Sequence record: PZ452594.1
Strand: one strand, 5' to 3'
Length of the DNA: 64,000 nucleotides
Source of the DNA: a phage
Shown here in pieces: positions 3,743 through 43,564 of this stretch. Below the pieces are notes generated by a model. That model was not told the origin of the DNA. It worked only from the letters and a program-made list of their open reading frames with translations, and did no database searches. Positions within the stretch are counted from its first letter, which is position 1, and each line of letters begins with the position of its first letter. Both the position numbers and the translations under genes were made by a program.

Positions 3743-4840
<1,098 letters not shown>

Positions 4841-4936
4841 TTAATCCTATTCCATAGTCCAAATCCATGTATACTGCACCATTGTATACATCGTTGTAAC
4901 GGTATAACGGTCTGAGCATTCTAACATAGTTTTCAT

Positions 4937-9857: not shown

Positions 9858-12121
9858 TACAATTTACACGCTGCACAATCGTCGGCTTTTGGAGTTTCTA
9901 TTTCATAATCATCAGTACCAGAACCATCGCGGGTATTATGATAATAGAAATTTTTTCCGCCAAAATACCAAAAATACAAAAGGTCATCAATCATTATTGA
10001 CATTGGAACCTTTCCTTTAGGGAAGATTTGGGGGTCATAGTATGTATTCGCTGAAGCTGATTGACATACCCATTTCAGCATAATAGCTACCTGCGTAAGA
10101 TAAGGTTTATTACCTTTCTTAGCTAATTTCCATGTATAATCATAGAGGTCTATGTTATGCTCAATATTGGGCACGACTTGATTAAAGGAGCCCTCTTTTG
10201 ATTCTTTAACAGAGACTGGTCCACGTGGAGGCTCGATACCGTTTGTACTGTTAGAAACTTGGGAAGATGACTCACATGGCATAAGTGCTGATAATGTGCT
10301 ATTACGGATGCCAAAGAGCTTAAGGTCTTCCCGCAGCGACGACCAGTCACAAACGTATTTTGGAGCTGCGATTTGGTCAATCTTTTTATTGTACCAGTCG
10401 ATAGGTAATTCGCCTCGAGACCAACGAGTGTCTGAATAATATTCGCAAGGTCCTTTTTCTTTGGCGATCTTAATGGATGCTTTAATGAGTCCATACTGTA
10501 ATCTCTCAAATAGTTCATGTGTTAAATCGTTAGCATCTTCATAAGAAGCAAAGTTACTTGCCAGCCAAGCTGCATAGTTAGTAACACCTACACCAAGGTT
10601 TCGACGCTTTTTAGCTTTTTCTGCTTCAGGAACTGGATATCCTTGGTAATCCAAAAGATTATCAAGAGCACGAACTTGAACTTCTGCTAATTCATTAATT
10701 TTATCTTGGTCTTGCCAATCGAAGTTATCCAGCACAAATGCAGATAACGTGCACAATCCAATTTCAGCATCAGGACTATTCACATCATTTGTTGGAATAG
10801 CAATTTCACAGCACAAGTTACTCTGACGAATAGGTGCCTTTTCACGAATAAACGGAGTGTAGTTATTCGTATTATCAATGAACTGCACATAAATCCTTGC
10901 TGTTCCTGAACGTTCAGTCATGAGCAATTCAAATAGTTCACGGGCTTTAATACGCTTTTTACGAATATTAGGGTCTTTTTCTGCTGCTTCGTATAATTCA
11001 CGGAAACGGTCTTGGTCTTTAAAATAAGAATAATAAAGCTCTCCACCCATTTCATGTGGACTGAACAAAGTAATGTAATCGTTCTTTCCAAAACGTTCCA
11101 TCATTAGATCATTCAGTTGAACACCATAATCCATATGACGAATGCGGTTTTCTTCTACGCCTTTGTTATTTTTTAAAACGAGAAGATTTTCAACTTCCAA
11201 ATGCCAAATAGGATAATAAGCAGTAGCAGCGCCGCCACGAATTCCACCCTGTGAGCATGATTTAACTGCAGTCTGAAAATGTTTCCAAAAAGGAATAACA
11301 CCAGTATGGCGTACTTCACCCATGCCAATCTTAGAACCTTCGGCACGAATCATACCAACGTTAATACCAATTCCAGCGCGTTTAGAGATATATTCAACAA
11401 TTGAAGCGGAAGCCTTATTGATAGACTTTAATGAATCACCTGCCTCAATAACAACACATGAACTAAACTGTCGAGTCGGAGTACGACAACCAGCCATAAT
11501 AGGAGTTGGCAATGAAATCTGTCGAGTAGATACTGCTTCATAAAAACGGATAACATGTTTTAATCTATCAACAGGTTCATCTTGATGCAGTGCCATTCCA
11601 ATAGTCATAAATGCAAACTGTGGAGTTTCATAAATTTGACCAGTGGTTTTATCTTTGACTAGATATTTTTCTTTTAATTGCATCGCCCCGGAATAAGTAA
11701 ATTCCATATCCCGCTCGTGCTTAATTTTTGATTCTAAAAATGTAATTTCTTCTGCTGAATATTTTGACAATAATTCAGGGTCATATTTACCTGCATTTAC
11801 ACAATAAGAAATATGGTCAATAAATGAACGTGGTTCATACTGCCCATAAACATGCTTACGAAGAGAGAACATTAAACAGCGAGCGGCTACATATTGGTAA
11901 TCAGGCTCTTCAACTGAAATAGAATTTGCAGCAGCCTTAATGACAATAGTCTGAATATCATCAGTTGTCATTCCATCACGGAGATAAGATTTAATATTTT
12001 CATATAATTCATAAGGATCTACTGATGTTCCCTCAGCTGCCCAAGATAAAACTTTAATAATTTTTTGTGGGTCAAAGCTCTGAGAAACACCACTACTTTT
12101 GATAACATTAATTAATTGCAT
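9857..12121 (-). CDS. nrdA: ribonucleotide reductase large subunit
   Basis: 754 aa; class I RNR catalytic-site motifs (NLCCEI, PCESSS) and C-terminal CxxC redox pair. Confidence 0.95.
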   Translation of the reverse strand: MQLINVIKSSGVSQSFDPQKIIKVLSWAAEGTSVDPYELYENIKSYLRDGMTTDDIQTIVIKAAANSISVEEPDYQYVAARCLMFSLRKHVYGQYEPRSFIDHISYCVNAGKYDPELLSKYSAEEITFLESKIKHERDMEFTYSGAMQLKEKYLVKDKTTGQIYETPQFAFMTIGMALHQDEPVDRLKHVIRFYEAVSTRQISLPTPIMAGCRTPTRQFSSCVVIEAGDSLKSINKASASIVEYISKRAGIGINVGMIRAEGSKIGMGEVRHTGVIPFWKHFQTAVKSCSQGGIRGGAATAYYPIWHLEVENLLVLKNNKGVEENRIRHMDYGVQLNDLMMERFGKNDYITLFSPHEMGGELYYSYFKDQDRFRELYEAAEKDPNIRKKRIKARELFELLMTERSGTARIYVQFIDNTNNYTPFIREKAPIRQSNLCCEIAIPTNDVNSPDAEIGLCTLSAFVLDNFDWQDQDKINELAEVQVRALDNLLDYQGYPVPEAEKAKKRRNLGVGVTNYAAWLASNFASYEDANDLTHELFERLQYGLIKASIKIAKEKGPCEYYSDTRWSRGELPIDWYNKKIDQIAAPKYVCDWSSLREDLKLFGIRNSTLSALMPCESSSQVSNSTNGIEPPRGPVSVKESKEGSFNQVVPNIEHNIDLYDYTWKLAKKGNKPYLTQVAIMLKWVCQSASANTYYDPQIFPKGKVPMSIMIDDLLYFWYFGGKNFYYHNTRDGSGTDDYEIETPKADDCAACKL

Positions 12122-12675: not shown

Positions 12676-13536
12676 TTACACCGCCATCTTTCCTTTAATA
12701 GGAGGGTGTGATTCATAGTTGTTAAGAACAAAATTATGCGGCTTTGCGAATTGACTCAACCAAAATACCTGCGATTCTGTGTCCCATTCATCAAATTCAT
12801 CTGGAAATTTTAATTGCAATTCGCATAAATCCATAGGTTCACGACGTAAAATTTCTTTACATTGTTCTACGTGATTCATATAGATATGAGTATTACCGCC
12901 AGAAAATATCAAATCTCCCGGAATAAGATTACACATCTTAGCTACAATATGAACTAACGTAGCATATGATGCAATATTAAATGGAAGACCGAGGAAAACA
13001 TCTACCGAACGTTGATACCACTGGAGGTCAAGGTATCCGTTACGAACATTAAATTGATAGAACATATGACAAGGCGGTAATGCCATATATTTAAGTTCAG
13101 CTGGATTCCATGCAGAAACAATTTGACGCCTATCATTTGGCAGTTTTTTAATACGATCAATAACTTCTATAATTTGGTCTACACCGCCAAAATCACGCCA
13201 CTGTTTTCCATAAATTGGACCAAGTTCACCGCTATGGTATCCTAAATCTTTTGCTTGATTTTCGTAATTTTCATCCCAGACTGTTTTGCCTTGGATTAAC
13301 GAATCATGCTGAATTAATCGTAAATCATTGACATTTGTGCTTCCTGACAAAAACCATATTAACTCAGCAATGCAAGCTTTCCAGGCGAGCTTTTTAGTTG
13401 TTACTGCAGGAAAACCTTTGGTTAAATCCCAACGCAATTTAGTACCAAACAAAGCAATTGTTCCTGTGCCTGTTCGGTCATCGGTTTCATAACCATTTTC
13501 AAAAATGTCTTTAATTAAATCTTGGTATTGTTTCAT
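12676..13536 (-). CDS. td: thymidylate synthase, uninterrupted
   Basis: 286 aa; ThyA active-site region with catalytic Cys (PPCH); no intron. Confidence 0.95.
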
Positions 13537-19495: not shown

Positions 19496-22400
19496 ATGGC
19501 CGAGATTAAAAGAAAGTTCAGAGCAGAAGATGGTCTGGACGCAGGTGGTGATAAAATAATCAACGTAGCTTTAGCTGATCGTACCGTAGGAACTGACGGT
19601 GTTAACGTTGATTACTTAATTCAAGAAAACACAGTTCAACAATATGATCCAACTCGTGGATATTTAAAAGATTTTGTAATCATTTATGATAACCGCTTTT
19701 GGGCTGCTATAAATGATATTCCAAAACCGGCAGGAGCTTTTAATAGCGGACGCTGGAGAGCATTACGTACCGATGCTAACTGGATTACGGTTTCATCTGG
19801 TTCATATCAATTAAAATCCGGTGAAGCTATTTCGGTTAACACCGCAGCTGGAAATGACATCACGTTTACTTTACCATCTTCTCCAATTGATGGTGATACT
19901 ATCGTTCTCCAAGATATTGGAGGAAAACCTGGAGTTAACCAAGTTTTAATTGTAGCTCCAGTGCAAAGTATTGTAAACTTCAGAGGCGAGCAAGTACGTT
20001 CAGTACTAATGACTCATCCAAAGTCACAGTTAGTTTTAATTTTTAGTAATCGTCTGTGGCAAATGTATGTTGCTGATTATAGTAGAGAAGCTATAGTTGT
20101 AACACCAGCAAGTCTCTATCAGGCGCAATCTAATGATTTTATCGTACGTAGATTTACTTCTGCTGCACCAATTAATGTTAAACTTCCAAGATTTGCTAAT
20201 CATGGCGATATTATTAATTTCGTTGATTTAGATAAACTGAATCCACTTTATCATACAATTGTTACTACATACGATGAAACGACTTCAGTACAAGAAGTTG
20301 GAACTCATTCCATTGAAGGCCGTACATCGATTGACGGTTTCTTGATGTTTGATGATAATGAGAAATTGTGGAGATTGTTTGACGGGGATAGTAAAGCGCG
20401 TTTACGCATTATAACGACTAATTCTAATATTCGTCCAAACGAAGAAGTTATGGTATTTGGTGCGAATAACGGAACAACTCAAACAATTGAGCTTCAGCTT
20501 CCAACTAATATTTCTGTTGGTGATACTGTTAAAATTTCCATGAATTACATGAGAAAAGGACAAACAGTTAAAATCAAAGCTGCCGGTGAAGATAAAATTG
20601 CTTCTTCAGTTCAATTACTGCAATTCCCAAAACGCTCAGAATATCCGCCTGAAGCTGAATGGGTTACAGTCCAAGAATTAGTTTTTAACGGTGAAACTAA
20701 TTATGTACCAGTTTTAGAACTTGCTTATATTGAAGATTCTGATGGAAAATATTGGGTTGTACAGCAAAACGTTCCAACCGTAGAAAGAGTAGACTCTTTA
20801 AATGATTCTACTAGAGCAAGATTAGGCGTAATTGCTTTAGCTACACAAGCTCAAGCTAATGTCGATTTAGAAAATTCTCCACAAAAAGAATTAGCAATTA
20901 CTCCAGAAACATTAGCTAACCGTACTGCTACTGAAACTCGTAGAGGTATCGCAAGAATAGCAACTACTGCTCAAGTGAATCAGAACACCACATTCTCTTT
21001 TGCTGATGACCTTATCATCACTCCTAAAAAGCTGAATGAAAGAACTGCTACAGAAACTCGCAGAGGTGTCGCAGAAATTGCTACGCAGCAAGAAACTAAT
21101 ACAGGTACTGATGATACTACAATCATTACTCCTAAAAAGCTTCAAGCTCGTCAAGGTTCTGAATCATTATCTGGTATTGTAACTTTTGTATCTACGGCGG
21201 GTGCTACTCCAGCTTCTAGTCGTGAATTAAATGGTACAAATGTTTATAATAAAAACACTAATAACTTAGTTGTTTCACCTAAAGCCTTGGATCAGTATAA
21301 AGCTACTCCAACACAGCAAGGTGCAGTAATTTTAGCAGTTGAAAGTGAAGTAATTGCTGGACAAAGTCAGGAAGGATGGACAAATGCTGTTGTAACGCCA
21401 GAAACGTTACATAAAAAGACATCAACTGATGGAAGAATTGGTTTAATTGAAATTGCTACGCAAAGTGAAGTTAATACAGGAACTGATTATACTCGTGCAG
21501 TCACTCCTAAAACTTTAAATGACCGTAAAGCAACTGAAAGTTTAAGTGGTATAGCTGAAATTGCTACGCAAGTTGAATTCGACGCAGGCGTCGACGATAC
21601 TCGTATCTCTACACCATTAAAAATTAAAACCAGATTTAATAGTACTGATCGTACTTCTGTTGTTGCTCTATCTGGATTAGTTGAATCAGGAACTCTCTGG
21701 GACCATTATACACTTAATATTCTTGAAGCAAATGAGACACAGCGTGGTACACTTCGTATAGCTACACAAGTTGAAGCTGCTGCAGGAACATTAGATAATG
21801 TTTTAATAACTCCTAAAAAGCTTTTAGGTACTAAATCTACTGAAGCACAGGAAGGTGTTATTAAAGTTGCAACCCAGTCTGAAACTGTGACTGGAACGTC
21901 AGCGAACACTGCTGTATCTCCAAAAAATTTAAAATGGATTGTGCAGAGTGAACCTACTTGGGCAGCTACTACTGCGATAAGAGGTTTTGTTAAAACTTCA
22001 TCTGGTTCAATTACATTCGTTGGTAATGATACAGTCGGTTCGACCCAAGATTTAGAACTGTATGAGAAAAATAGCTATGCGGTATCACCATATGAATTAA
22101 ACCGTGTATTAGCAAATTATTTGCCGTTAAAAGCAAAAGCTGCTGATACAAATTTATTGGATGGTCTAGATTCATCTCAGTTCATTCGTAGGGATATTGC
22201 ACAGACGGTTAATGGTTCACTAACCTTAACCCAACAAACGAATCTGAGTGCCCCTCTTGTATCATCTAGTACTGCTACGTTTGGTGGTTCAGTTTCGGCA
22301 AATAGTACATTAACTATTTCTAATACTGGAACGACTTCTTCTCGATTTACATTTGAGAAAGGTCCTGCTTCTGGTAGTAATGCTGATTCTGCATTGTATG

Positions 22401-23368
22401 TTCGTGTATGGGGTAATAAGTACAGCGGCGGTTCTGATGTAACTCGTGCAACGATTATAGAATTCTCTGATGCTACCGGCTCTCATTTCTATTCTCAAAG
22501 AGATACGTCAAATAATGTGTTGTTCAACATTTCAGGTACGATGCAATCAGTCAACGCTAACGTTCGTGGTGTTCTGAACGTTACAGGTGTCTCAACGTTT
22601 AATAGTTCAGTTACAGCCAATGGTGAATTCATTAGCAAGTCTGCAAATGCTTTCAGAGCAATAAATGGTGATTATGGATTCTTTATCAGGAATGATGGCG
22701 GTAGCACATATTTTATGCTTACTGCATCTGGTGATCAGACTGGCGGATTTAATGGATTACGTCCATTATCAATTAATAATGCATCTGGCCAAGTAACGAT
22801 TGGTGAAAGCTTAATCATTGCCAAAGGTGCTACTATAAATTCAGGTGGTTTGACTGTTAACTCGAGAATTCGTTCTCAGGGTACTAAAACATCTGATTTA
22901 TACACCCGTGCACCAACATCTGATACTGTAGGATTCTGGTCAATTGATATTAACGATTCAGCCACTTATAACCAGTTTCCGGGTTATTTTAAAATGGTTG
23001 AAAAAACTAATGAAGTGACTGGGCTTCCATACTTAGAACGTGGAGAAGAAGTTAAATCTCCTGGTACACTGACTCAGTTTGGTAACACACTTGATTCGCT
23101 TTACCAAGATTGGATTACTTATCCAACGACGCCAGAAGCGCGTACCACTCGCTGGACACGTACATGGCAGAAAACCAAAAACTCTTGGTCAAGTTTTGTT
23201 CAGGTATTTGACGGAGGTAACCCTCCTCAACCATCTGATATCGGTGCTTTACCATCTGATAATGCTACAATGGGGAATCTTACTATTCGTGATTTCTTGC
23301 GAATTGGTAATGTTCGCATTGTTCCTGACCCAGTGAATAAAACGGTTAAATTTGAATGGGTTGAATAA
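19496..23368 (+). CDS. 34: gp34 long tail fibre proximal subunit
   Basis: 1290-aa ORF; length, position after rnh and internal repeat architecture match T-even gp34. Confidence 0.93.
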   Translation: MAEIKRKFRAEDGLDAGGDKIINVALADRTVGTDGVNVDYLIQENTVQQYDPTRGYLKDFVIIYDNRFWAAINDIPKPAGAFNSGRWRALRTDANWITVSSGSYQLKSGEAISVNTAAGNDITFTLPSSPIDGDTIVLQDIGGKPGVNQVLIVAPVQSIVNFRGEQVRSVLMTHPKSQLVLIFSNRLWQMYVADYSREAIVVTPASLYQAQSNDFIVRRFTSAAPINVKLPRFANHGDIINFVDLDKLNPLYHTIVTTYDETTSVQEVGTHSIEGRTSIDGFLMFDDNEKLWRLFDGDSKARLRIITTNSNIRPNEEVMVFGANNGTTQTIELQLPTNISVGDTVKISMNYMRKGQTVKIKAAGEDKIASSVQLLQFPKRSEYPPEAEWVTVQELVFNGETNYVPVLELAYIEDSDGKYWVVQQNVPTVERVDSLNDSTRARLGVIALATQAQANVDLENSPQKELAITPETLANRTATETRRGIARIATTAQVNQNTTFSFADDLIITPKKLNERTATETRRGVAEIATQQETNTGTDDTTIITPKKLQARQGSESLSGIVTFVSTAGATPASSRELNGTNVYNKNTNNLVVSPKALDQYKATPTQQGAVILAVESEVIAGQSQEGWTNAVVTPETLHKKTSTDGRIGLIEIATQSEVNTGTDYTRAVTPKTLNDRKATESLSGIAEIATQVEFDAGVDDTRISTPLKIKTRFNSTDRTSVVALSGLVESGTLWDHYTLNILEANETQRGTLRIATQVEAAAGTLDNVLITPKKLLGTKSTEAQEGVIKVATQSETVTGTSANTAVSPKNLKWIVQSEPTWAATTAIRGFVKTSSGSITFVGNDTVGSTQDLELYEKNSYAVSPYELNRVLANYLPLKAKAADTNLLDGLDSSQFIRRDIAQTVNGSLTLTQQTNLSAPLVSSSTATFGGSVSANSTLTISNTGTTSSRFTFEKGPASGSNADSALYVRVWGNKYSGGSDVTRATIIEFSDATGSHFYSQRDTSNNVLFNISGTMQSVNANVRGVLNVTGVSTFNSSVTANGEFISKSANAFRAINGDYGFFIRNDGGSTYFMLTASGDQTGGFNGLRPLSINNASGQVTIGESLIIAKGATINSGGLTVNSRIRSQGTKTSDLYTRAPTSDTVGFWSIDINDSATYNQFPGYFKMVEKTNEVTGLPYLERGEEVKSPGTLTQFGNTLDSLYQDWITYPTTPEARTTRWTRTWQKTKNSWSSFVQVFDGGNPPQPSDIGALPSDNATMGNLTIRDFLRIGNVRIVPDPVNKTVKFEWVE
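20860..21960 (+). repeat. tandem ~30-33-aa coding repeats inside gene 34
   Basis: At least eight units of the form TATETRRG(I/V)A.IAT...N(T)GTD.T.ITPKKL. Confidence 0.7.
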
Positions 23369-23376
23369 GAGGTATT

Positions 23377-24492
23377 ATGGAAAAATTTATGGCAGAGTTT
23401 GGACAAGGATATGTCCAAACGCCATTTTTATCGGAAAGCAATTCAGTAAGATACAAAATAAGCATAGCGGGTTCTTGCCCGCTTTCTACAGCAGGACCAT
23501 ACGTTAAATTTCAGGATAATCCTGTAGGAAGTCAAACATTTAGCGCAGGTCTTCATTTAAGAGTTTTTGACCCTTCCACGGGAGCATTAGTTGATAGTAA
23601 GTCATATTCTTTTTCGACTTCAAATGATACTACATCTGCTGCTTTTGTTAGTTTCATGAATTCTATTTCAAGCAATAGACTTGTTGCTATATTAACTAAC
23701 GGAAAGGTTAATTTTCCTCCTGAAGTAGTATCTTGGTTAAGAACCGCCGGAACGTCTGCCTTTCCATCTGATTCTATATTGTCAAGATTTGACGTATCAT
23801 ATGCTGCTTTTTATACTTCTTCTAAAAGAGCTATTGCATTAGAGCATGTTAAACTGAGTAATAGAAAAAGCACAGATGATTATCAAACTATTTTAGATGT
23901 TGTATTTGACAGTTTAGAAGACGTCGGAGCTACCGGGTTTCCAAGAAGAACGTATGAAAGTGTTGAGCAATTTATGTCGGCAGTCGGTGGAACTAATAAC
24001 GAAATTGCGAGATTGCCAACTTCAGCTGCTATAAGTAAATTATCTGATTATAATTTAATTCCTGGTGATGTTCTTTATCTTAAAGCACAGCTATATGCTG
24101 ATGCTGATTTACTTGCTCTTGGAACTACAAATATATCTATCCGTTTTTATAATGCATCTAATGGATATATTTCCTCGACACAAGCTGAGTTTACTGGGCA
24201 AGCTGGGTCATGGGAATTAAAGGAAGATTATGTAGTTGTTCCAGAAAATGCAGTAGGATTTACGATATATGCACAAAGAACTGCACAAGCTGGTCAAGGC
24301 GGAATGAGGAACTTAAGCTTTTCTGAGGTATCAAGAAATGGCGGTATTTCAAAACCTGCTGAATTTGGCGTCAACGGTATTCGTGTTAATTATATCTGTG
24401 AATCTGCTTCACCTCCGGATATAATGGTACTTCCTACACAAGCATCGTCTAAAACTGGTAAAGTGTTTGGGCAAGAATTTAGAGAAGTTTAA
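23377..24492 (+). CDS. 35: gp35 long tail fibre hinge protein
   Basis: 371-aa ORF immediately after gene 34. Confidence 0.85.
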   Translation: MEKFMAEFGQGYVQTPFLSESNSVRYKISIAGSCPLSTAGPYVKFQDNPVGSQTFSAGLHLRVFDPSTGALVDSKSYSFSTSNDTTSAAFVSFMNSISSNRLVAILTNGKVNFPPEVVSWLRTAGTSAFPSDSILSRFDVSYAAFYTSSKRAIALEHVKLSNRKSTDDYQTILDVVFDSLEDVGATGFPRRTYESVEQFMSAVGGTNNEIARLPTSAAISKLSDYNLIPGDVLYLKAQLYADADLLALGTTNISIRFYNASNGYISSTQAEFTGQAGSWELKEDYVVVPENAVGFTIYAQRTAQAGQGGMRNLSFSEVSRNGGISKPAEFGVNGIRVNYICESASPPDIMVLPTQASSKTGKVFGQEFREV

Positions 24493-24497
24493 ATTGA

Positions 24498-24520
24498 GGG
24501 AGCCTTCGGGTTCCCTTTTT
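24498..24520 (+). terminator. plus-strand intrinsic terminator / stabilising hairpin after gene 35
   Basis: GGGAGCC / TTCG / GGTTCCC followed by TTTTTCTTT. Confidence 0.55.
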
Positions 24521-24523
24521 CTT

Positions 24524-24531
24524 TATAAATA
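24524..24531 (+). promoter_or_regulatory. late promoter TATAAATA for genes 36-37
   Basis: Exact TATAAATA 24 nt upstream of the gene 36 ATG. Confidence 0.6.
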
Positions 24532-24554
24532 CTATTAAAATAAAGGGGCATACA

Positions 24555-25220
24555 ATGGCTGATTTAAAAGTAGGTTCAACAACCGGAGGCTCTGTCATTT
24601 GGCATCAAGGAAATTTTCCATTGAATCCAGCCGGTGACGATGTACTCTATAAATCATTTAAAATATATTCAGAATATAATAAACCACAAGCTGCTGATAA
24701 CGATTTCGTTTCTAAAGCTAATGGTGGTACTTATGCATCAAAGGTAACATTTAACAGTGGCGTGCAAATACCATATGCTGTAAACAATACAAACCAAAGC
24801 GGTATTTATCCTGGCAATGGTGATGCTGCTACTTTTGATACAGCAAATATTGATATTGTTTCATGGTATGGCATTGGTTTTAAATCATCACAAGGATCTG
24901 CAGGTAGAACTGTTGTTGTTAACACTCGTACCGGTGATATCAGCACTAAAGGTGGTATTTATGCAATCGGACCCGTCCGTTCTAACGTTACCGCTCCAGT
25001 TGCAGCAAATGACCTTACTAGAAAGGACTATGTTGATGGAGCAATAAATACTGTTACGGCAAATGCGAACTCTAGAGTGTTGCGTTCTGGCGACACTATG
25101 ACAGGTAATTTAACCGCACCAAACTTTTTCTCGCAGAATCCTGCATCTCAACCTTCACACGTTCCACGATTTGACCAAATCGTAATTAAGGATTCTGTTC
25201 AAGATTTCGGCTATTATTAA
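24555..25220 (+). CDS. 36: gp36 long tail fibre distal connector
   Basis: 221-aa ORF; length and position as in T4. Confidence 0.85.
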
Positions 25221-25228
25221 GAGGACTT

Positions 25229-28200
25229 ATGGCTACTTTAAAACAAATACAATTTAAAAGAAGCAAAACCGCAGGTGCACGTCCTGCTGCTTCAGTATTA
25301 GCCGAAGGTGAATTGGCTATAAACTTAAAAGATAGAACAATTTTTACTAAAGATGATTCAGGAAATATCATTGATCTAGGTATTGCTAAAGGCGGTCAAA
25401 TTGATGGAAATGTAACTATTGATGGAACTTTACGCGTCAATGGACCAATAAACAACTTTGGAAATTTTTCTACAAATGGTACTATTACGGCAAGTAATAT
25501 TGTTTCTGCTACAGTATTCAGATCAACATCCGGTTCATTTTATACAAGAGCAATAAATGATACTGCAAATGCCCATCTTTGGTTTGAAAATACAAATGGC
25601 TCAGAACGTGGCGTTTTATATTCAAAACCGCAGTCTGAAAATGAAGGCGTAATTACAATGCGTGTTCGTCAAGGAACCGCTGCGGGAGCTCAAAATTCAG
25701 AATTTCATTTCATTTCTACTGATGGCGGTATCTTCCAGGCACGTAAGTTAACTGCTTTAACTTCTATTAGTACACCAACTATTAGTGTTAATTTAATTAA
25801 TCATGATTCTAAATCATTTGGACAATACGATTCACAATCTTTGGTTAACTATGTTTATCCTGGAACTGGTGAAACAAATGGCGTAAACTATCTTCGTAAA
25901 GTTCGCGCTAAGTCCGGTGGTACAATTTATCATGAAATTGTTACTGCCCAAACAGGCCTGGCTGATGAAGTTTCTTGGTGGACTGGTAATACACCGTTAT
26001 TTAAACTATATGGTATTCGTAACGACGGTAGAATGATTATTCGCAATAGCTTGGCCATTGGTACTGTGACGCAAGGGTTTCCGTCAAGCGATTATGGAAA
26101 TGTTGGGGCACTAGGAAATATATTTCTTGCTTTAGGTGATAATGGAACTGGTCTAGTTTATAGAAAAACCGGCGTATTTGATTTTGTTGGTTCTGGTTTA
26201 TCTTTGGCATCTATTACACCTGATAGTTTCCGTAGTACCCGTAAAGCAATTTTTGGTCGTTCCGAGGACCAAGGTACAACATGGATTATGCCTGGCACTA
26301 ATGCTGCTTTCTTGTCTGTTCAAACACAAGCTGATACTAACAATGCTGGAGACGGGCAAACTCATATTGGGTACAATGCTGACGGTAAAATGAGTCATTA
26401 TTTCCGCGGTAAAGGCAAAACTAATATTAATACTCAGGAAGGTGTGGACGTTAACCCTGGTATTTTAAAATTGGTAACTGGTTCTAATAACGTACAGTTT
26501 TATGCTAACGGAACAGTATCTTCAATACAAAGAATTAAATTTGATAATGGATTAGTTCTTACTGGTGCTAGACCCGATGGTATTCAACTTGACGCTCCTA
26601 CAACAACAGATGGCACTAAAACTATATTGTGGGCCGGTGGTACTCGCGCAGGTCAGAATAAAAGTTATGTATCTATCAAAGCATGGGGTAATGCCTTTAA
26701 CGCATCTGGCGATCGTTCCCGTGAAACAGTTTTTGAGGTAGGTGATGGGCAAGGTTACCATTTTTATTCTCAACGTGTAGCTCCTGCGCCTGGTTCGACT
26801 GTCGGGCCTATTCAACTACGAGTTAATGGTGGTTTATTAACTTCAGGTAGTATTGTTGCTTCTGGTTCTATTACAACCGAATCTTCTTTGAGTGTTAATA
26901 ATGGCATGTCAGTAAACGGTGAATTAAAGGTTGGTGGTACCGCAGATAACTTCCGTATTTGGAACGCTAAATACGGCGCTATTTTCCGTCGTTCAGAAGA
27001 TTCCTTGTATATAATTCCTACAGCCATTAACCAAGGCGAAAGCGGTGGAATAAGCGATATAAGACCGTTCAGTATTAACCTTGGCACTGGCTCTGTTGTA
27101 ATGGGTAACCATACTCAAGCGGGTAAAAACCTTTTCACGGTTGATAACGTTTCTAAATTAGTACAAACTGATGTTCGTTTCCGTGTTAACATGGATTCCG
27201 ACGGTATTGTTTTGAATGCTTCTTCTCAAGCAGCGTCTAACTTTATCCAAGGACGTAAAGCGGATGTTACAAAATGGTATCTCGGTATTGGCGACGGTGG
27301 TAACGTTGTTCGTTTACATAACTATACCTATTCCCACGGTATTGCATTAAACTCTGATACTGTAGATATTACTAAGCCTCTTAAAATTAATAATATTCGA
27401 ATTGGTACAGATGGCAACATCACAGGTGGTACTGATAATTTTGCCAATTTAAATACAACGTTAAACAATAAAGTCAATGTTGGTGGTTGGTCAGGCGGAG
27501 CTACAACTGGGTGGTATAAGTTTGCGACAGTTAATATTCCTCAATCTACTGGAACAGTATCATTTAAAATATATGGTGGTTCAGGATTTAATTTTAAAAG
27601 TTATGGGCAAGCTTCTGTCGCAGAAATAATTCTTAGAACTGGAAATAATCCTAAAGGACTTAACGCTACATTATGGAACAGAACTTCTGAAGCATTTTCA
27701 CAAATTGCTACAGTTAACACAAGCAATGATACATATGACGTTTATGTTTATGTGGGAGGATATTCAAATGCTTTAGTCGTCGAATATTCATGTACCAGTA
27801 ATAGTACAGTAACTGTTGTTGGTGTTAATGGAGGAATTCAACCTATTGTTGAAACACTTCCAGAAGGTCATGTAGTAGGTAAAACTGTAAGATTATTGAA
27901 TAACATCGATGGAATGTTTGCTGCTGGTGAATCTGATGTTGTTACTCGTGGTGAATTTGTTACCAATAACCAAAAAGGTTTACGCATTAAATCTAGAGGC
28001 AACGATATTGATTCTAATGCTGTTATTATTCGAAATGATGGTGGAAGTTTTTATATTCTAGCTACAGATAAGAATACATCATCAAATCCTGATGCTGCAT
28101 CAGGTAATTGGAATAATTTAAGACCTTTCTCCATTAATATGGCTGATGGTCGCGTTGGTATGAACCATGGTCTAAATATTACCGGCGGTGGCTTGAATGT

Positions 28201-29071
28201 TACTGGTGGCTTGAATGTTACTAGCGGTAATACTAGTTTAGGTAATATCTCGTCTCGTGTAGTAGCAGGTTGGCGAGGAGCGTCTGGTTGGGCTGATAAC
28301 TCGGATACAATGAAATCTAAAATCACCTTTATGGCAGACCATGGGGATTTATCTAATTCAGGCAGTTATTATCCTATTGTAGGTGCATACAGCAACTATG
28401 GTTCAGCAGGTTATCGTCAAACCTTTGAATTTGGATGGGTCGGCTCTGGTACCACCGCTGGGTGGCGAGAAGGTATTATTCGTATTCGCGGAGATAATGC
28501 TAACGGCCAGCAAGCAAGATGGCGCTTTACAATGAACGGTATTTTAGATTGCCCTGGTAAAGTACAGATGCCACAAACAAGCGCATTTGGTGTCAATACA
28601 ACAAATGGATGGGGTGGTAACTCAATTGCGATAGGTGATAGCGATACTGGTTTTAGACAAGTAGGCGATGGGCTTTTAGAAACATGGGCAAACAACGTTA
28701 AGGTCGTTCGTTATACTTCAAGTGAAGTTTATTCCGAGAAAAACGTCAACGCTCCTAACGTTTATATTCGTTCTGATATTCGTTTGAAATCTAATTTCAA
28801 GCCTATTGAAAACGCGCTCGAAAAGGTTGAACAACTTGATGGTTTAATCTATGACAAAGCTGAATATATAGGCGGTGAACCTGTCCAAACAGAAGCAGGT
28901 ATTATAGCTCAAACGTTGCAAGACGTTTTACCAGAAGCCGTCCGTGAAACAGAAGACAGCAAGGGTAATAAAATACTCACTGTTTCTTCTCAAGCCCAGA
29001 TTGCTCTTCTGGTTGAAGCTGTGAAAACACTTTCTTCTCGTGTAAAAGAACTTGAATCTAAACTTATGTAA
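25229..29071 (+). CDS. 37: gp37 long tail fibre distal subunit
   Basis: 1280-aa ORF following 36; C-terminal ~110 aa resemble a fibre chaperone-like domain. Confidence 0.9.
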
Positions 29072-29101
29072 AAGAGGGCTTCGGCCCTCTAAGGATTTTT
29101 A

Positions 29102-29887
29102 ATGGCAATTGTAGGTGTTCCTGGCTGGATTGGCGAATCTGCCGTGAATGAAACTGGACAACGCTGGATGGATGCTGCAATGAGAGCTGTTCGTGTTTCA
29201 GTTCCTGGTTGGATGAGCTCAATGGCTGGACAATCTAAAGAAGTATATTACAGCATTGGTGCTAGTAATTCTTATAATAAAGACACGTTAATAAACTGGA
29301 TAAAAGCCCAAGGCAGTACTCCTGTTGTTATTACTATTACAGGAAATATTGTTTCTCAATCTACTGGTGTTCCATGCTTAGATTTTCCTAGCTCATTAAC
29401 TAATGCATACGTGACACTTAATATCAATTCAGGCGTGCATGTTTGGGGCCGTGGCGGGAATGGCGGAAATAACTCTGCCGGTGGAGCAGGAGGAACTGCA
29501 ATAAATAATGGAATTGGAACTAGATTGCGTATTAACAACAATGGTGTTATCGCAGGAGGCGGTGGCGGCGGTGGAGGCGGATATTATTCTCCTTTTTCAC
29601 AAATGAAATTGACTTTTGGCGGTGGCGGCGGTCGTCCATTTGGTGCTGCTGGCGGGTCTGCTAATATGGAACAGGGCGCTACTGCTGGTACTATTTCTGC
29701 ACCTGGTAAAGGGTCTGTCAATGGTATCTATAATGGCGGGAATGGCGGTGATGCTGGTGCCGCAGGTGGTAAATGTAATATTCGTGGGCAAGGATCAGAA
29801 TATAACGGCGGTGCTGCTGGTAAGGCTGTTACTGGTAATGCTCCAACTTGGACTAAAGTTGGTACAATATATGGTTCAAGAGTATAA
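29102..29887 (+). CDS. 38: gp38 receptor-recognising adhesin (T2 type, glycine-rich)
   Basis: 261 aa with poly-glycine blocks (GGGGGGGGGY, GGGGGRPFGAAGG, NGGNGGDAGAAGG) separated by variable segments. Confidence 0.85.
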   Translation: MAIVGVPGWIGESAVNETGQRWMDAAMRAVRVSVPGWMSSMAGQSKEVYYSIGASNSYNKDTLINWIKAQGSTPVVITITGNIVSQSTGVPCLDFPSSLTNAYVTLNINSGVHVWGRGGNGGNNSAGGAGGTAINNGIGTRLRINNNGVIAGGGGGGGGGYYSPFSQMKLTFGGGGGRPFGAAGGSANMEQGATAGTISAPGKGSVNGIYNGGNGGDAGAAGGKCNIRGQGSEYNGGAAGKAVTGNAPTWTKVGTIYGSRV

Positions 29888-29918
29888 TTTTGAATAAATA
29901 TCCTTAAAAGGAGGGTCT

Positions 29919-30575
29919 ATGGCAGCACCTAGAATATCATTTTCGCCCTCTGATATTCTGTTTGGTGTTCTAGATCGCTTGTTCAAAGATAATGCTACCG
30001 GGAAGGTTCTTGCTTCCCGAGTAGCTGTCGTAATTCTTTTATTTATGATGGCGATTGTTTGGTATAGGGGAGATAGTTTCTTTGAGTACTATAAGCAATC
30101 AAAGTATGAAACATACAGTGAAATTATTGAAAAGGAAAGAAATGCACGCTTTGAATCTGTCGCCCTGGAACAACTCCAGATAGTTCATATATCATCTGAG
30201 GCAGACTTTAGTGCGGTGTATTCTTTCCGCCCTAAAAACTTAAACTATTTTGTTGATATTATAGCATACGAAGGAAGATTACCTTCAACAATAACTGAAA
30301 AATCACTTGGAGGATATCCTGTTGATAAAACTATGGATGAATATACAGTTCATTTAAATGGACGTCATTATTATTCCGATTCAAAATTTGCTTTTTTACC
30401 AACTAAAAAGCCTACTCCCGAAATAAACTACATGTACAGTTGTCCATATTTTAATTTGGATAATATCTATGCTGGAACGATAACCATGTACTGGTATAGA
30501 AATGATCATATAAGTAATGACCGCCTTGAATCAATATGCGCTCAGGCGGCCAGAATATTAGGAAGGGCTAAATAA
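29919..30575 (+). CDS. t: holin
   Basis: 218 aa; single N-terminal transmembrane segment and large periplasmic domain as in T4 T. Confidence 0.92.
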   Translation: MAAPRISFSPSDILFGVLDRLFKDNATGKVLASRVAVVILLFMMAIVWYRGDSFFEYYKQSKYETYSEIIEKERNARFESVALEQLQIVHISSEADFSAVYSFRPKNLNYFVDIIAYEGRLPSTITEKSLGGYPVDKTMDEYTVHLNGRHYYSDSKFAFLPTKKPTPEINYMYSCPYFNLDNIYAGTITMYWYRNDHISNDRLESICAQAARILGRAK

Positions 30576-33423: not shown

Positions 33424-33573
33424 TTACTGCTCGAACGCGATAACTATCGTGATAACACGTTGAATTCCGAACGCAAGAAGACCTCCTGCTACGGCTGGAA
33501 CAACGCCTAAACCCGCCAGTAAAATGCTACCAGATACTAATGCAGCGCTTGTAATACCTATGAATGGACTCAT
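33424..33573 (-). CDS. small hydrophobic protein, 49 aa (below track cutoff)
   Basis: ATG overlaps the gene 52 stop (ATGA); predicted membrane peptide MSPFIGITSAALVSGSILLAGLG... Confidence 0.45.
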   Translation of the reverse strand: MSPFIGITSAALVSGSILLAGLGVVPAVAGGLLAFGIQRVITIVIAFEQ

Positions 33574-34898
33574 TTGATTTCCTCTAAATCTTTGGCGTAT
33601 TCTGTAACTACATCAGTAGTTTTCCAATATTCGTTTTCTTCTTTTTTAGCTTTAGCTTCTTCAGCAAGTTTCTTCGCTTCATCGGAAGTCATATGAAAAA
33701 TATTCATTCCAACTAGTTTATCAACATAAGAAGAATACATATCGATTTTCGAAAGTTCTTCGGTCAGTTCTTTACGAGTTTTACCCTGTACAACAATTTC
33801 ACCTGAAATTACTTTCTTAATGAAATGTGCCTTGGCAAAGGCTAAACGAAAAGCTGACTCAGTTTCTTTAATTTTGTTATCAATTCGTTTTTGAACATAA
33901 GTTTTACGAACTTCAACAAAGTCTTTAATTAAATCAACTACGTTATCGTAAACTTGTAGTTTTCCTTTCTCATTAATGACGGTAATATTCTGAGAACGAC
34001 GCTCAATCAACCCGAAGTCTTTCATAATTTTTGCATGGCGTTCTTCTTCGTTATCGCTCAAAGAATATTCTTTACGGAATTTAACTTTGAACCCAAAACC
34101 ATGCTCACCACAAGCATCATCCCACGTAATGAAGCCTTTATCTTCAAGTGGGTCTAAGATTTTACTCACATAAGTTTCACGATCATACTTATACGGAATC
34201 TCAGTGATATGCATTTGAGTTCGTGAAGTAAACTTATATGTTCCACGAATTTCATATTGCCCATCAATTTCAACGACTTCACCACGAAATTCTGGGAATT
34301 CTACCTTCGGTTTAGTTACTTTCTTTCCTTGAAGAGCTTGTAATACAGCTTTCTTAACAGAAGAAACACTATGAGGAAGAATGTAAGTTGCATAACCAGT
34401 TGCAATACCGGAAACGCCATTAAGAAGAACAGTAGGAATAATAGGCAAATAGAAAGCAGGCGGAATGTGTTCTTTATCTTGATGTACCGGAGCATATTCA
34501 GTATCTTTATATACGTTATAGAAATTTTTACTTACACGAGCAAAAATATAACGACTTGCTGCTGCTTTTTGGACGGTACGAGAACCAAAGTTTCCTTGAC
34601 CATCTAACAGAGGAAAGTTATTATTCCAAGTGTTAGCCATCAAAGCACCTGCGTCTTGCGCAGAGTTTTCACCATGATGATATCCAAGGTCCGCTACACC
34701 GCCTGCGATAGAAGCGAGTTTGTGAAACTTATCTTTATTTCCTCGTGCCAAATCAAGAGCTCGAGCAATAACAAATCGTTGAACTGGCTTAAATCCATCA
34801 ATCATATTTGGAATGGCACGATTTTCAACCGTGTACATAGCATAAGCCAATGCTTCATTATCAATGATACTTTTTAAATCGCGATTATTCAGTTGCAT
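33570..34898 (-). CDS. 52: gp52 topoisomerase II medium subunit (GyrA-like)
   Basis: 442-aa ORF; length and position as T4 gp52. Confidence 0.92.
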   Translation of the reverse strand: MQLNNRDLKSIIDNEALAYAMYTVENRAIPNMIDGFKPVQRFVIARALDLARGNKDKFHKLASIAGGVADLGYHHGENSAQDAGALMANTWNNNFPLLDGQGNFGSRTVQKAAASRYIFARVSKNFYNVYKDTEYAPVHQDKEHIPPAFYLPIIPTVLLNGVSGIATGYATYILPHSVSSVKKAVLQALQGKKVTKPKVEFPEFRGEVVEIDGQYEIRGTYKFTSRTQMHITEIPYKYDRETYVSKILDPLEDKGFITWDDACGEHGFGFKVKFRKEYSLSDNEEERHAKIMKDFGLIERRSQNITVINEKGKLQVYDNVVDLIKDFVEVRKTYVQKRIDNKIKETESAFRLAFAKAHFIKKVISGEIVVQGKTRKELTEELSKIDMYSSYVDKLVGMNIFHMTSDEAKKLAEEAKAKKEENEYWKTTDVVTEYAKDLEEIK

Positions 34899-38593: not shown

Positions 38594-40771
38594 TTAGGCC
38601 GCAAGGGCCTTCATAGTTTTGGCGATTTGGGAAACTTCATCATCACTTAAAGAGTTGCGATATCCGATGAAGTCGGAAACAATACGGAATTTCTTGGTAA
38701 ACTCAGCAACCATTTTATCACTGTTTTTTGAAGCATTATTTGATAATACATCAAAAAGATTAGTTACTGTCCAGATGTCATGACCGATGGTATCTTTTCC
38801 ACCATTGAAATATACGCCCCGTAATGAACTAACTATATTAGCGAGTCGTGTATATTCTTCAGAAACATCATCTGTACTGAAATACTTCATCATAAAATCT
38901 AGTTCAGGATATTTAATAATTTTATCAATATATCGTTGAGCTGAACTTGAATAACCTACATACTTATCATAATCTACATCATCAAAAGCATCTACATATA
39001 AATCACGCAAAGCTTCAAAAATACATTGGCACTGACCGAGTTCTTTTACCTTTTTCTGTAAAAGCGGACGAATAACATAAAATTCATTAATGCCAATAAG
39101 ATTAGCCATACGAATCAAAATATTCATAGATGGATGACAAAGAGATGTAGTACCATCCATAGAGAAAATATCAGAACGATGCATATACGCTACATAACCA
39201 GTAATTTCATCTGCTTCTGATGTGAGCGTAAATAATTCCTCTTTTTCCCAACGCCCATCTTTAATTTCAAACTTAAACGCTGTAGCAGCTTTAGGACGAG
39301 GAGCTTTACTTTTAACTACCTTTGGAATATAACTTTTTACTAAAGCTTCAATTTCTGACAAATAATGAATGTTAACTTCATCACTTTCAAACATCGCCAT
39401 AATATCAGGGAGTAAATCAATCTGCGATTCTACTTCTGGGTTAATAAACAGAAGGCGTTCGTTATGATGAATATTTAAAGTGTTATTAAATTCACTATCA
39501 TCTAACGCATGTGCTAATCCACGGACAATATTAACACGATTTTTAATATTATCAATAACGATATTAATTTTTGTTGTATTAATACCAAACAGACGATAAC
39601 TTGATGCAACGGCTGAAGTTTCATGACTTTGCTTAATGCGCTTCAGTCGAGGGTCAAGATTTACTTCATACACAACTCCTGCATTGCATAACTTACTATC
39701 AGGTTCAAACATGCTTTGCATCTTCTTATATGACAGATTTTTAGTCGTAAATTTGACTGAATTACTAATCATATAATCTCGAGCAGAATACCCCATCTTC
39801 ATCAATTCACGATATGTATGACGGGGAGATGTGGATTCTTTAAATCGTTTTACATCTTCATTAAATGCTTTCTCACTGAGTTCTTTAACTCGTTCAATAA
39901 TATTTTTACGAGTACGATCATCCAGTGAAAGAGCCTCGCGAGATGGAGCAATATCAAGTGAACCCATTGGAAACTTAATGTAATTCACTTCATTGCGAAT
40001 GCTTAGCCAGTTACGGTCTCTAATAACACCATCGATAGGATAAACAATACCGCCATAGATAGCATATAATCCACCACGATCAGGCCAGTATCTTTCTGGA
40101 TTTACACCATAATAATCATCAAAATCCGGAAAATAATCAATTTCACGGTCAAGACCATTAATGATAGCCAAATCTTTGAACGGTCGCATGATATAAGAAA
40201 CTTCATAAGCAAAGTTTCTAAAGTCTTTTTCTTCAACTGGAACTACGATTTCAATACCAGTTTTATCATCTGGACCCATTTCTTTTACGAATGTAGGTTT
40301 AATCTGTGGACCATCACCATCCATGTAAGCTACATAACCACGAATTTCACCTTTATGATACGAAGTAATACTAAACGTATCAGTATAACTAAATGGAGAT
40401 TTAGAACCTAAACCAAATCCGCCAATAAAGTCATTAGATTCGGCTTTCGATGAACTGAAGTATGAATTATACAACCCAGGAGAATTATCATCACCTTGAA
40501 TATCAAAATCACTCATACCCGGACCAAAATCTCGACAAACAAATCGTGGATCTAATCGTCCTGGAACTTGAATGATAAATTTTTCAGGATTTCCATTGAG
40601 AGCATGGGCATCAATCATGTTGGTAATCAATTCACGGACTACTGCGCGAATCTTGTTTGTATACAAATCAGATGACAGAATTTTAAATACTTTAGGATTT
40701 GCTGCGATGCTAAATGCTTTTGATTTAGCACCATTACCAAGAATTGTTTCTTTTTCAGTGGTGATAATCAT
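38594..40771 (-). CDS. rIIA: rIIA protein
   Basis: 725-aa ORF; matches T4 rIIA in length and N-terminal sequence by recall. Confidence 0.92.
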
Positions 40772-40781
40772 AATTTCCTCA

Positions 40782-40985
40782 TTAATTCATATTGCGTTTA
40801 ATAACTTCAGCAACTTCTAGTAGTTCATCTTTAGTTGCGGTGTCGGATTGAATTTTATCTCTAATATCCTTAAAGCGGTTTTTAAACTCTTCGGCTTCTC
40901 CCATATCGAAAAAGCGTTGAATGATTCTATATTCTCGATGAACTGCTTTATCAAAAAGTTCTAAATTTACTCTGTATGATTTCAT
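40782..40985 (-). CDS. hypothetical protein (rIIA.1-like)
   Basis: 67-aa ORF with SD GAGGATATTGAA. Confidence 0.5.
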
Positions 40986-41010
40986 TTCAATATCCTCATT
41001 TGCCCAATTA

Positions 41011-41040
41011 ATTATACCACATCCTTGTGGTAAAGTAAAC
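41011..41040 (-). promoter_or_regulatory. T4-type early promoter (GTTTAC-18-TATAAT)
   Basis: GTTTAC 41035-41040 and TATAAT 41011-41016; spacer contains the inverted repeat CCACA...TGTGG. Confidence 0.6.
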
Positions 41041-42860
41041 TACTGGCTCATCCATTCTTTGCGAAGGTCAGCATTATCTCCCATGAGCATTTCAAAAAGC
41101 TCTTTCCAGTTCTCAGGAAGTTTAACAACATCATATACTGGGTTTTGAATCATCTCACGATATTCAGATTTTTCTAAAGAGCCAAGTCCCTTAATATAAC
41201 GGATGCTATGTTTAGGTAGAGCATCTTTAGCACTCTCATATTCAGCGACTGTATAAAACCATTCTTGTTTTTTACCGACCTGAGCGATGATTACAGGAGT
41301 TTTGACAAAGCGAATTCTTCCTTGTTCAAACAGTTCTGGCCAATTACTAAAAAATCCGAGCAGAGAAGGATAAATGCTTCCTAGACCATCATGGTCAGCA
41401 TCAGTCATAATAGCAATATTATGATAATTCAAGTTTTCAGCTTTTTCACCGAGAACTAGACCAGTGATTGCGCAAATATCAAATAGTTCTTTGTTTTTAA
41501 GCATATCTGCATAAGACATACCCCAACTGTTGAGAACTTTACCACGTAATGGATAACCACCATGAAGTTCTTTATCACGAACATCAATAAGATATCCGAT
41601 AGCAGAATCACCCTCAGTCAAGAAAAGAGTAGTGTCAGCATCTTTACCACAAAGATTCGCTTTGATATGTTTATGAACCTTAGCTTTAGAAGCCTTTTTA
41701 GCTGCTTTAGTTTCTGCTGCTTTTTCTGCCGCCAATTTACGAGCCAAAGCAGCTTCGATAATCGGCATTAGAATTGCTTCATTATTTAGAATAGCACGTG
41801 AAATCTTTTTAGCATCAAGCTGAATATGACTACGGATTTCACCAAATGGAGAAGTCAAACGCTCTTTAGTTTGAGAATCAAATCGCATGTTTTTCATATC
41901 ACGAACAAACATAACGATAGTCAAACATTCTTTGACACGCGCTTTAGTCACATCAATTTTGAACTTACGTTTGATTTGTGGAATAAGGTCTTCACAAATA
42001 TCATCCATAACACAGTCAATGTGATGGCCACCATTCTTAGTGTGGATGTTATTCACATAAGTTAATTGACGAAATCCATCCGGTGAACGACCAACCGCAA
42101 TAGAACAATTTTCTTGTTCTTGAACGATAGCATGCTCATCATATTGGCGTGCATATTTCTTAAAATTGCCCTGAACCTTTTTACCATTAAAGGTAAATTG
42201 AATATCAGGATAAACAACAGCAAGTGTCTGGAGACGATCTAGTGTAATGTCAAGATAAACTTGGGACAGCTCATTAGTTTCAAATGACATAAAATCAGGA
42301 ATGAAAGTAACACGAGTTCCTTTCCATTTTCCTGGAATAGTTTCCCATGATTTATTTTCCATGCCATTTGAACAACGAACTACAATATTATTTTGACCAT
42401 CGCCAGTTTCACCGACAAACATCACAGAAAAAATGTTAGTTAAACTAGAACCAACACCATTCATACCACCGGTGACACGTTCTTTATCATCACCAAAGTT
42501 ACCACCCGCTTTTGGAATAGTCCAAGCAGCAACTGGACCAGGAATTTCTTCACCGGTAGGTGTTTTAACCATCGCTTGTGGAATACCACGACCGTTATCT
42601 TCAACTGTTACTTGATTGTTTTTGATGGTAACATTAATTTTATTCGCGAATTTAAACTTAGTACGAATACCTTCATCTACTGAGTTATCGATAATTTCAT
42701 CAATAAGCTTAACAAGACCAGGTACATACTGAACACTTTCCCATTTACCAAACAGAAAGCGCTCATGCATTTCATTAGCAGAAGAGCCAATGTACATGCC
42801 ACTACGCTTTTTGATATGTTCAATATCGCTCAGAATTTTAATTTCATTCTTAATCATCAC
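41040..42860 (-). CDS. 39: topoisomerase II large subunit (GyrB-like), single unsplit ORF
   Basis: 606-aa continuous ORF; GHKL ATPase N-terminus and TOPRIM-like region (LTEGDSA). Confidence 0.92.
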   Translation of the reverse strand: MMIKNEIKILSDIEHIKKRSGMYIGSSANEMHERFLFGKWESVQYVPGLVKLIDEIIDNSVDEGIRTKFKFANKINVTIKNNQVTVEDNGRGIPQAMVKTPTGEEIPGPVAAWTIPKAGGNFGDDKERVTGGMNGVGSSLTNIFSVMFVGETGDGQNNIVVRCSNGMENKSWETIPGKWKGTRVTFIPDFMSFETNELSQVYLDITLDRLQTLAVVYPDIQFTFNGKKVQGNFKKYARQYDEHAIVQEQENCSIAVGRSPDGFRQLTYVNNIHTKNGGHHIDCVMDDICEDLIPQIKRKFKIDVTKARVKECLTIVMFVRDMKNMRFDSQTKERLTSPFGEIRSHIQLDAKKISRAILNNEAILMPIIEAALARKLAAEKAAETKAAKKASKAKVHKHIKANLCGKDADTTLFLTEGDSAIGYLIDVRDKELHGGYPLRGKVLNSWGMSYADMLKNKELFDICAITGLVLGEKAENLNYHNIAIMTDADHDGLGSIYPSLLGFFSNWPELFEQGRIRFVKTPVIIAQVGKKQEWFYTVAEYESAKDALPKHSIRYIKGLGSLEKSEYREMIQNPVYDVVKLPENWKELFEMLMGDNADLRKEWMSQ

Positions 42861-42926
42861 TTATCCTCGTTTGGTTTCGGGAATATTATACTCCGGTAAT
42901 CATAAAGCTAAAGGCCCGAAGGCCTT

Positions 42927-43196
42927 TTATTTAAAACGGATAGTCGAATCCTTGAAGAATAGACCAGAACACACGGTTCCTTCTACTTTCTGCCCAGTAG
43001 GTCCAATAGCACGAAATCCAGTATGCTGGAAATCATTTTCAGAGCAACCGAACCAGTTATATCCAGTGATTTCAATATTCGTAAAACCACTTGAAGATAA
43101 AACTTTGGTTGCATTATCAGCATCAGTACATCCTGCTAAAGACACTGCTAATACTAATGCTGCGATAGAACGATTAACATATTTCATAATTTTCAC
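42927..43196 (-). CDS. putative lipoprotein
   Basis: 89 aa; signal peptide with lipobox LAGC. Confidence 0.5.
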   Translation of the reverse strand: MKIMKYVNRSIAALVLAVSLAGCTDADNATKVLSSSGFTNIEITGYNWFGCSENDFQHTGFRAIGPTGQKVEGTVCSGLFFKDSTIRFK

Positions 43197-43564
43197 TTAA
43201 ATTTAATGGCTTGAAGAAGACTAATAACTCTCAAGCGACTTCTTTCATCTTTAACTGTAAAAGAAAGAGGGTCACCAGATTTCATAGTAATGGTACATTC
43301 AAAATCAAAATCTTCTGTAACTTCTTCGAAGAAGTCAAATTCTTCATCATAAATTAGAACATTACTCTGACAACTATGAAGAATTTTTCCATCATTTCCA
43401 GATGCTGTACTAATCATTGTAACATTATGACCTTTCATATCTTCAACGATAAATTCACTAGTCAATATTACAGCATTAATAGAACTATTCCTATTACTAG
43501 CAGAAAGTAGATATTTCTGTTCTTCACCTTCACGAATGCAATATTTCTTACCGATTTTAAACAT
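43193..43564 (-). CDS. hypothetical protein
   Basis: 123-aa ORF. Confidence 0.5.
   Translation of the reverse strand: MFKIGKKYCIREGEEQKYLLSASNRNSSINAVILTSEFIVEDMKGHNVTMISTASGNDGKILHSCQSNVLIYDEEFDFFEEVTEDFDFECTITMKSGDPLSFTVKDERSRLRVISLLQAIKFK

Follow-up and report, generated by a model that had tools for sequence, protein, structure and literature searches.

An undivided T2/T6-type topoisomerase II gene 39 and the empty T4 mobA/bypass cassette site in a phage sequence

Ever since the first studies of gene 60, T2 and T6 have been known to carry an undivided form of gene 39, which encodes the large subunit of the phage type II topoisomerase. The topoisomerase II of T2 and T6 has two subunits (gp39 and gp52), whereas that of T4 has three. 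The T6 enzyme has been assayed and structurally solved; it relaxes DNA and is devoid of a GyrA-box and a C-terminal beta-pinwheel, and the TOPRIM domain of T4 carries an insertion of ~70 aa that the other gp39 homologues do not have (PMC11461880). Relative to related phages, the T4 gene is split by insertion of mobA (PMC2988022). mobA and the translational bypass have been described as one mobile cassette, and each clade has 96–99% identical counterpart genomes without it; its 5' break is clean, after residue ~472–473, and a 64-nt parental region is swapped for a homologous region of 67–81% identity borne on the insert. The cassette carries the bypass and, in the T4 clade, extends 9 nt further past the landing codon (bioRxiv 10.1101/2022.08.31.505936). 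The nick that the MobA endonuclease makes in T2 lies inside the region swapped by the cassette, and MobA is efficient in converting phages without the cassette (bioRxiv 10.1101/2022.08.31.505936, citing Bonocora et al. 2011). Here we describe gene 39 and its surroundings in a 64,000-nt stretch of phage DNA (record PZ452594.1), hereafter called the window.

Gene 39 of the window and its product

Over 500 Tequatrovirus (T4-like) records matched the region 40700..43300 at 95–98% identity, and their annotations read rIIA, rIIA.1, 'DNA topoisomerase II large subunit' and hypothetical protein. A 24-kb query gave a best match of ~96–97%, and no record in the phage collection was identical to the window (best ~96–98% DNA identity). 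Downstream of gene 39 lie rIIA (725 aa) and rIIA.1 (67 aa; Pfam T4_RIIA1). Judged by these sequence matches, the window is from a T4-like phage of the genus Tequatrovirus. The features of the topoisomerase genes are as follows.

41040..42857, minus strand: gene 39, DNA topoisomerase II large (ATPase + TOPRIM) subunit, 605 aa plus stop (from the ORF, Pfam, identity to T6/T2 and PDB)
41385..41402, minus strand: TOPRIM acidic motif DADHDG, residues 486–491 in the 605-aa numbering (motif scan); interrupted by cassette and bypass in T4
42885..42924, minus strand: upstream signals of gene 39 (hairpin, AGCTTTA, TATAAT), with a possible MotA-type middle promoter
33570..34898, minus strand: gene 52, topoisomerase II medium (GyrA-like, DNA-cleavage) subunit and partner of gp39, 442 aa (Pfam DNA_topoisoIV)

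In the six-frame ORF list, the minus strand of 41040..42860 forms one open frame of 606 codons if counted from a GTG, and the only stop in its translation is the terminal one. With a stop frequency of ~0.07 per random codon, which we estimated from the window GC content of ~36%, an open frame of 606 codons would arise by chance with a probability of ~1e-19, so the ORF 41040..42860 is real. The original prediction had described a single unsplit ORF of 606 aa; the gene is indeed unsplit, but its product is likelier to be one residue shorter. The in-frame GTG at 42858..42860, the first start codon past the upstream stop, lies one codon 5' of an ATG (42857), and a protein of 606 aa would result if translation began there. 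The sequence 5' of the gene 39 start (…ACGAGGATAAGTGATGATT…) contains a GAGG that is 7 nt away from the ATG and only 4 nt away from the GTG. The GTG-ATG context is invariant across T4, T2 and T6, and the records of T4, T2, T6 and ADUt all annotate gene 39 from the ATG despite the GTG they have in common; the T6 protein that was crystallised is also the 605-aa form. We therefore regard initiation at GTG 42860 as unlikely. Because of the GAGG spacing and the ATG annotation in the four phages, the gene 39 product is most likely a protein of 605 aa starting at ATG 42857.

The original prediction had proposed alignment with T2 and T6 gp39, and the proteins proved nearly identical, in agreement with an unsplit gene. 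The window gp39 matched T6 at 604 of 605 residues (sole difference Q526H), T2 at 603 of 605 (F70L, T173D) and phage ADUt at 604 of 605. At the DNA level, gene 39 was 96–98.6% identical to those of T6, T2 and ADUt (96–97% for T6 and T2), and its length was exactly 1818 nt, equal in all three with zero indels. Synonymous and nonsynonymous codon differences numbered 49:1 against T6, 69:2 against T2 and 25:1 against ADUt. By these ratios, the full-length frame is under strong purifying selection.

Pfam matches above cut-offs in the gene 39 product were HATPase_c, DNA_gyraseB and TOPRIM_C. The GHKL ATPase domain was recognized by HATPase_c (38.4 bits, cut-off 26.4) and by its N-box, G1 and G2 motifs (EIIDNSVDE at residue 54, DNGRG at 87 and GMNGVG at 131). 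The transducer domain was recognized by DNA_gyraseB PF00204 at residues 251–385 (51.1 bits, cut-off 27), and a QTK motif with the QTK-loop lysine was located at residue 329. The TOPRIM domain is uninterrupted and holds the conserved Glu and the DxD in EGDSA (from residue 415) and DADHDG; TOPRIM_C scored 30.7 bits (cut-off 29). The Pfam Toprim model itself had no match at E <= 0.001 in the gene 39 product; despite this, the TOPRIM region was covered by a complete alignment to a solved T6 chain. This chain, 8ylu_C of the T6 topoisomerase, was the best solved-structure match (residues 1–605 to 1–605, 1388 bits), followed by an engineered T4 gp39-gp60 fusion and then by eukaryotic Topo II, ParE and GyrB. 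As read from motifs and domain models, one polypeptide thus has GHKL ATPase, transducer and TOPRIM domains. The GyrA-like partner is encoded by gene 52, whose product matched Pfam DNA_topoisoIV PF00521 at residues 27–429 (E = 9e-77). Because gp39 is nearly identical to that of T6, for which structures and assays are available (PMC11461880), we infer that gp39 and gp52 would form a two-subunit type IIA topoisomerase, (gp39)2(gp52)2, with ATP-dependent DNA relaxation. The predicted activity of the gene 39 product is read across 1–2 residue differences, the window being identical to no record.

Three elements stand 5' of gene 39 on the minus strand: a GGCC-TTCG-GGCC hairpin at 42913..42924, 3' of the 39.1 stop, AGCTTTA at 42903..42909, and TATAAT at 42885..42890, which follows 12 nt on, just 5' of gene 39. 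The whole of 42885..42924 is the same in T4 and T6, and T2 has two base changes, both in the AGCTTTA–TATAAT spacer, so that hairpin, AGCTTTA and TATAAT are invariant in T4, T2 and T6. A sigma-70 consensus scan called no promoter 5' of gene 39, and its sites were no more numerous than in shuffled sequence. Against the T4 middle-promoter consensus, AGCTTTA and TATAAT look like a candidate MotA-type middle promoter. It is possible that 42885..42924 combines a terminator or RNA-stability hairpin with such a candidate promoter.

Variation was also observed among the small genes near gene 39. The 39.1 homologue (42927..43196, minus strand) has 89 aa if counted from a GTG and 86 aa in the T6 and ADUt annotations; it matched no Pfam family. 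It starts MKIMKYVNRSIAALVLAVSLAGC…, which by eye looks like a putative lipoprotein signal peptide with the lipobox LAGC, and the T4 gp39.1 as annotated is shorter, at 65 aa. Between 39.1 and 39.2, a 123-aa ORF without a Pfam match occupies 43193..43564 (minus strand). In T4, 39.2 directly follows 39.1 and there is no counterpart of this ORF; T6 has a gene of the same size at this position, annotated 'similar to RB69ORF005c', and T2 has a different ORF of 105 aa. By this comparison, 43193..43564 appears as a small variable slot adjoining gene 39. Farther away, 19496..30575 is the only plus-strand gene block of the window, and the GC skew flips there. The sizes of its ORFs (1290, 371, 221, 1280, 261 and 218 aa) and its position fit a putative long tail-fibre gene cluster of the T-even type.

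The empty cassette site

We compared the window gene with gp39 and gp60 of T4 (NC_000866), the bypass having been spliced out of the latter. In blastp, residues 2–474 of the 606-aa reading aligned without gaps to T4 gp39 1–473 (98.3% identity), and residues 473–606 aligned without gaps to T4 gp60 27–160 (95.5% identity). One continuous ORF is thus collinear with both T4 parts, as the original prediction had claimed. The gene 39 neighbourhood is that of T4 without 60 and mobA. In blastn, window 43189..41440 aligned to T4 5661..3911 (96.1%) and window 41375..40700 to T4 2793..2118 (97.8%), so that high-identity homology stops at window 41440 (T4 3911) and restarts at 41375 (T4 2793). The intervening window sequence 41431..41386 was only 76% identical to T4 2899..2854. 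Two features define the site.

41376..41439, minus strand: empty mobA-cassette site, 64 nt of parental coding sequence (…A ENLNYHNIAIMTDADHDG LGS…), from blastn breakpoints and codon view
41382..41387, minus strand: equivalent of the take-off/landing site of T4 gene 60, where GGT (Gly) is directly followed by CTA (Leu); in T4, GGA, 50-nt gap, TTA

These 64 nt are ordinary coding sequence, in place of which T4 has a mobA cassette of ~1.1 kb plus the 50-nt gap; the DNA comparison thus bears out the view that the T4 gene was split by an insertion, with a 50-nt bypass in gene 60. The last stretch common to the window and T4 before the break is …ITGLVLGEKA. In T4, GEKA is followed by 43 insert-encoded residues (FEEKEDGEWF…RKNL) and a stop, and gene 60 then has 30 insert-encoded residues, MNYANVAIMTDADHDG, GGA, a 50-nt gap opening with TAG, and TTA GGT TCT. 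In the window, …GEKA runs straight into ENLNYHN…: the codons GCT GAA AAC TTG AAT TAT CAT AAT ATT GCT ATT ATG ACT GAT GCT GAC CAT GAT GGT CTA GGA AGC translate in frame as A-ENLNYHNIAIMTDADHDG-LGS. The split equivalent had been expected near residue 516, around 41300. Since the last 43 residues of T4 gp39 are insert-encoded, the split falls instead at Ala473 (codon 41439..41441), and the codon comparison places the bypass-equivalent point at 41385|41384. The 64-nt site is identical to that of T2, and the 105-nt surround (codons 466–500) has a single T2 difference, outside the site. By sequence comparison, the breakpoints between window and T4 reproduce the published cassette description.

The lower identity of 41386..41431 (minus strand) is an observation of its own: it reaches 76% to T4 between flanks at 96–98%, and the T4 version is the cassette-borne copy (homR). 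We considered local hypervariability of the window at this segment and rejected it, the window version being identical to that of T2.

Every part of the cassette was searched for. Intact MobA (272 aa, from T4T) had no tblastn match in 40700..43300, and its only match in the window was a paralog at 9630..9857. The peptides of the C-terminal extension (CTE) of gp39 and the N-terminal extension (NTE) of gp60 gave only noise at E > 0.3 elsewhere in the window, and the bypass gap region gave only chance matches of 8–14 nt in blastn-short. The take-off hairpin pattern had 0 matches anywhere in the window with up to 3 mismatches allowed. At the site itself the frame reads GAT GGT CTA GGA AGC, and the 50-nt gap with its adjacent UAG stop is absent. 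A hop-like hairpin had been suggested as something to look for, and none was detected at the insertion-site equivalent: the coding-strand fold of 41330..41450 (121 nt) was no better than shuffles (z = -1.16), and that of 41355..41405 (51 nt) gave z = -0.88 with only a local stem of 5 bp. As a positive control, the T4 sequence formed its known stem-loop of 10 bp with a UUCG cap at GGA-UAG. An Rfam scan of the window had zero matches; because the T4-locus control also had zero, this result carries no weight for the bypass element. The alternative of a bypass element elsewhere in the window was rejected, as the pattern search and blastn-short were at chance level. With MobA, CTE, NTE, hairpin and gap all absent from the gene, the original prediction that it contains neither the insertion nor the bypass element held up, and from its sequence we conclude that the bypass element is absent from gene 39. 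The gene should be labelled as a T2/T6-type full-length topoisomerase II large subunit, with no recoding annotation.

Other sites associated with homing endonucleases were also observed in the window. At 9159..9857 (minus strand), an ORF of 232 aa with HNH and NUMOD3 has 56% identity to MobA over its first 77 residues (E = 4e-22). On one side its start overlaps the stop of nrdA (9857..12121, Pfam ribonucleotide reductase large chain), and on the other its stop overlaps the start of nrdB (7984..9162), so that it lies between the two genes. In a review of T4, mobE is listed between nrdA and nrdB (PMC2988022). Because this MobA-like ORF occupies the mobE position, the phage is without mobA yet has a mob-family homing endonuclease elsewhere. 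The introns of T4 carry I-TevI in td and I-TevIII in nrdB (PMC2988022). In the window, the thymidylate synthase gene (12676..13536, minus strand, 286 aa, full-length Pfam match) and nrdB (minus strand, 392 aa) are each a single uninterrupted ORF, and the Rfam scan detected no group I intron in the whole window. Relative to T4, td and nrdB thus appear to be further empty homing sites.

Undivided and divided genes among the relatives

We searched the phage collection with a junction query of 251 nt (41290..41540) spanning both junctions, and counted a record as contiguous when one piece covered at least 80% of the query. The gene was contiguous across the junction in 453 records, including T2, AR1, wV7 and HP3, and split (only one flank matched) in 42, for example T4, HY03 and 215Ecol030PP; an independent search found the T4 cassette itself in 43 records. 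A figure of 506 records with at least 80% coverage was rejected as a count of unsplit genes, since that search joined pieces up to ~1800 nt apart and would include T4-type records. The unsplit gene 39 is the majority state, in ~91% of close relatives. The original prediction had taken T4 as the reference and the unsplit gene as the curiosity; the counts turn this around.

We consider it nearly certain that the window encodes an intact T2/T6-type gp39 of a type IIA topoisomerase, with the gene in its naive state and with gp52 expected to complete a two-subunit enzyme. The collinearity, the breakpoints, the absence of every cassette part, the near-identity to T2 and T6 and the purifying selection are observations. 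In T4, and in a minority of its relatives, the mobA homing-endonuclease/translational-bypass cassette divides the gene into 39 and 60; the window gene never acquired it, or at least shows no trace of it. An undivided gene might also be a secondary revertant, left when a cassette-bearing ancestor lost the cassette by precise removal, for instance through recombination with a phage that had no insert. Mixed infections allow free recombination among T-even phages, clades that lost both endonuclease and bypass have been described (bioRxiv 10.1101/2022.08.31.505936), and the swap of a whole region from a naive phage would be scarless. However, CTE and NTE remnants persist in the published cases of loss (same preprint) and none was found here; at the 64-nt site the window carries the parental allele, identical to T2, and not the 76% copy of T4; homing spreads the cassette to empty sites and does not remove it; and most relatives are uninserted. 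We regard such a history as very improbable; if true, it would amount to a natural 'cure' of a homing-endonuclease/bypass element.

Even less credit can be given to the idea that the unbroken frame was produced by faulty assembly or sequencing, with the true gene being split or a pseudogene. The original prediction had raised it as a generic possibility, and we found no evidence supporting it. Against it, 453 independently sequenced records have a like contiguous junction, the gene shares its exact length of 1818 nt with T2, T6 and ADUt without indels, and synonymous changes exceed nonsynonymous ones 25–49 fold.

An uninserted gene in the naive state has a further implication. Because the 64 nt do not differ from the T2 sequence in which nicking is reported, the window site would very likely be a live MobA target, sensitive to nicking. 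If so, co-infection with a T4T-type phage would convert the window phage to the split form.

Comparison with described topoisomerases

The feature is an ordinary T2/T6-type gene 39, which is already known, and both the two-subunit enzyme and the mobA/bypass cassette are published. Its importance is mainly for annotation; it also adds one more uninserted 'parental' allele defining the cassette boundaries, and such alleles are abundant.

Compared with T4, residues 1–473 are 98% and the final 134 residues 96% identical to gp39 and gp60, and the flanking genes and upstream signals are alike. Through its cassette, T4 has gained a tail of 43 aa on gp39 and a head of 30 aa on gp60, as well as the HNH gene mobA (a pseudogene in laboratory T4 and intact in T4T) and the 76%-identical copy of the replaced segment. 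The 50-nt gap of T4, with its GGA take-off and landing codons and its UUCG-capped stem-loop, has no equivalent in the window.

The domain order GHKL ATPase, transducer and TOPRIM recurs in bacterial GyrB and ParE and in eukaryotic Topo II, in its N-terminal half. Human Topo II alpha and beta, yeast Topo II and ParE aligned over the full length, at E values of 1e-60 to 1e-47; GyrB is much longer than the window gp39. The gp39 proteins of T6 and T2 (605 aa; T6 PDB 8ylu and related entries) are of equal length to that of the window and have all catalytic motifs in common with it. Apart from the codons for Q526H (T6) and for F70L and T173D (T2), the DNA changes in gene 39 are all synonymous, and the gene order rIIA, rIIA.1, 39, 39.1 of T6 and T2 is that of the window.
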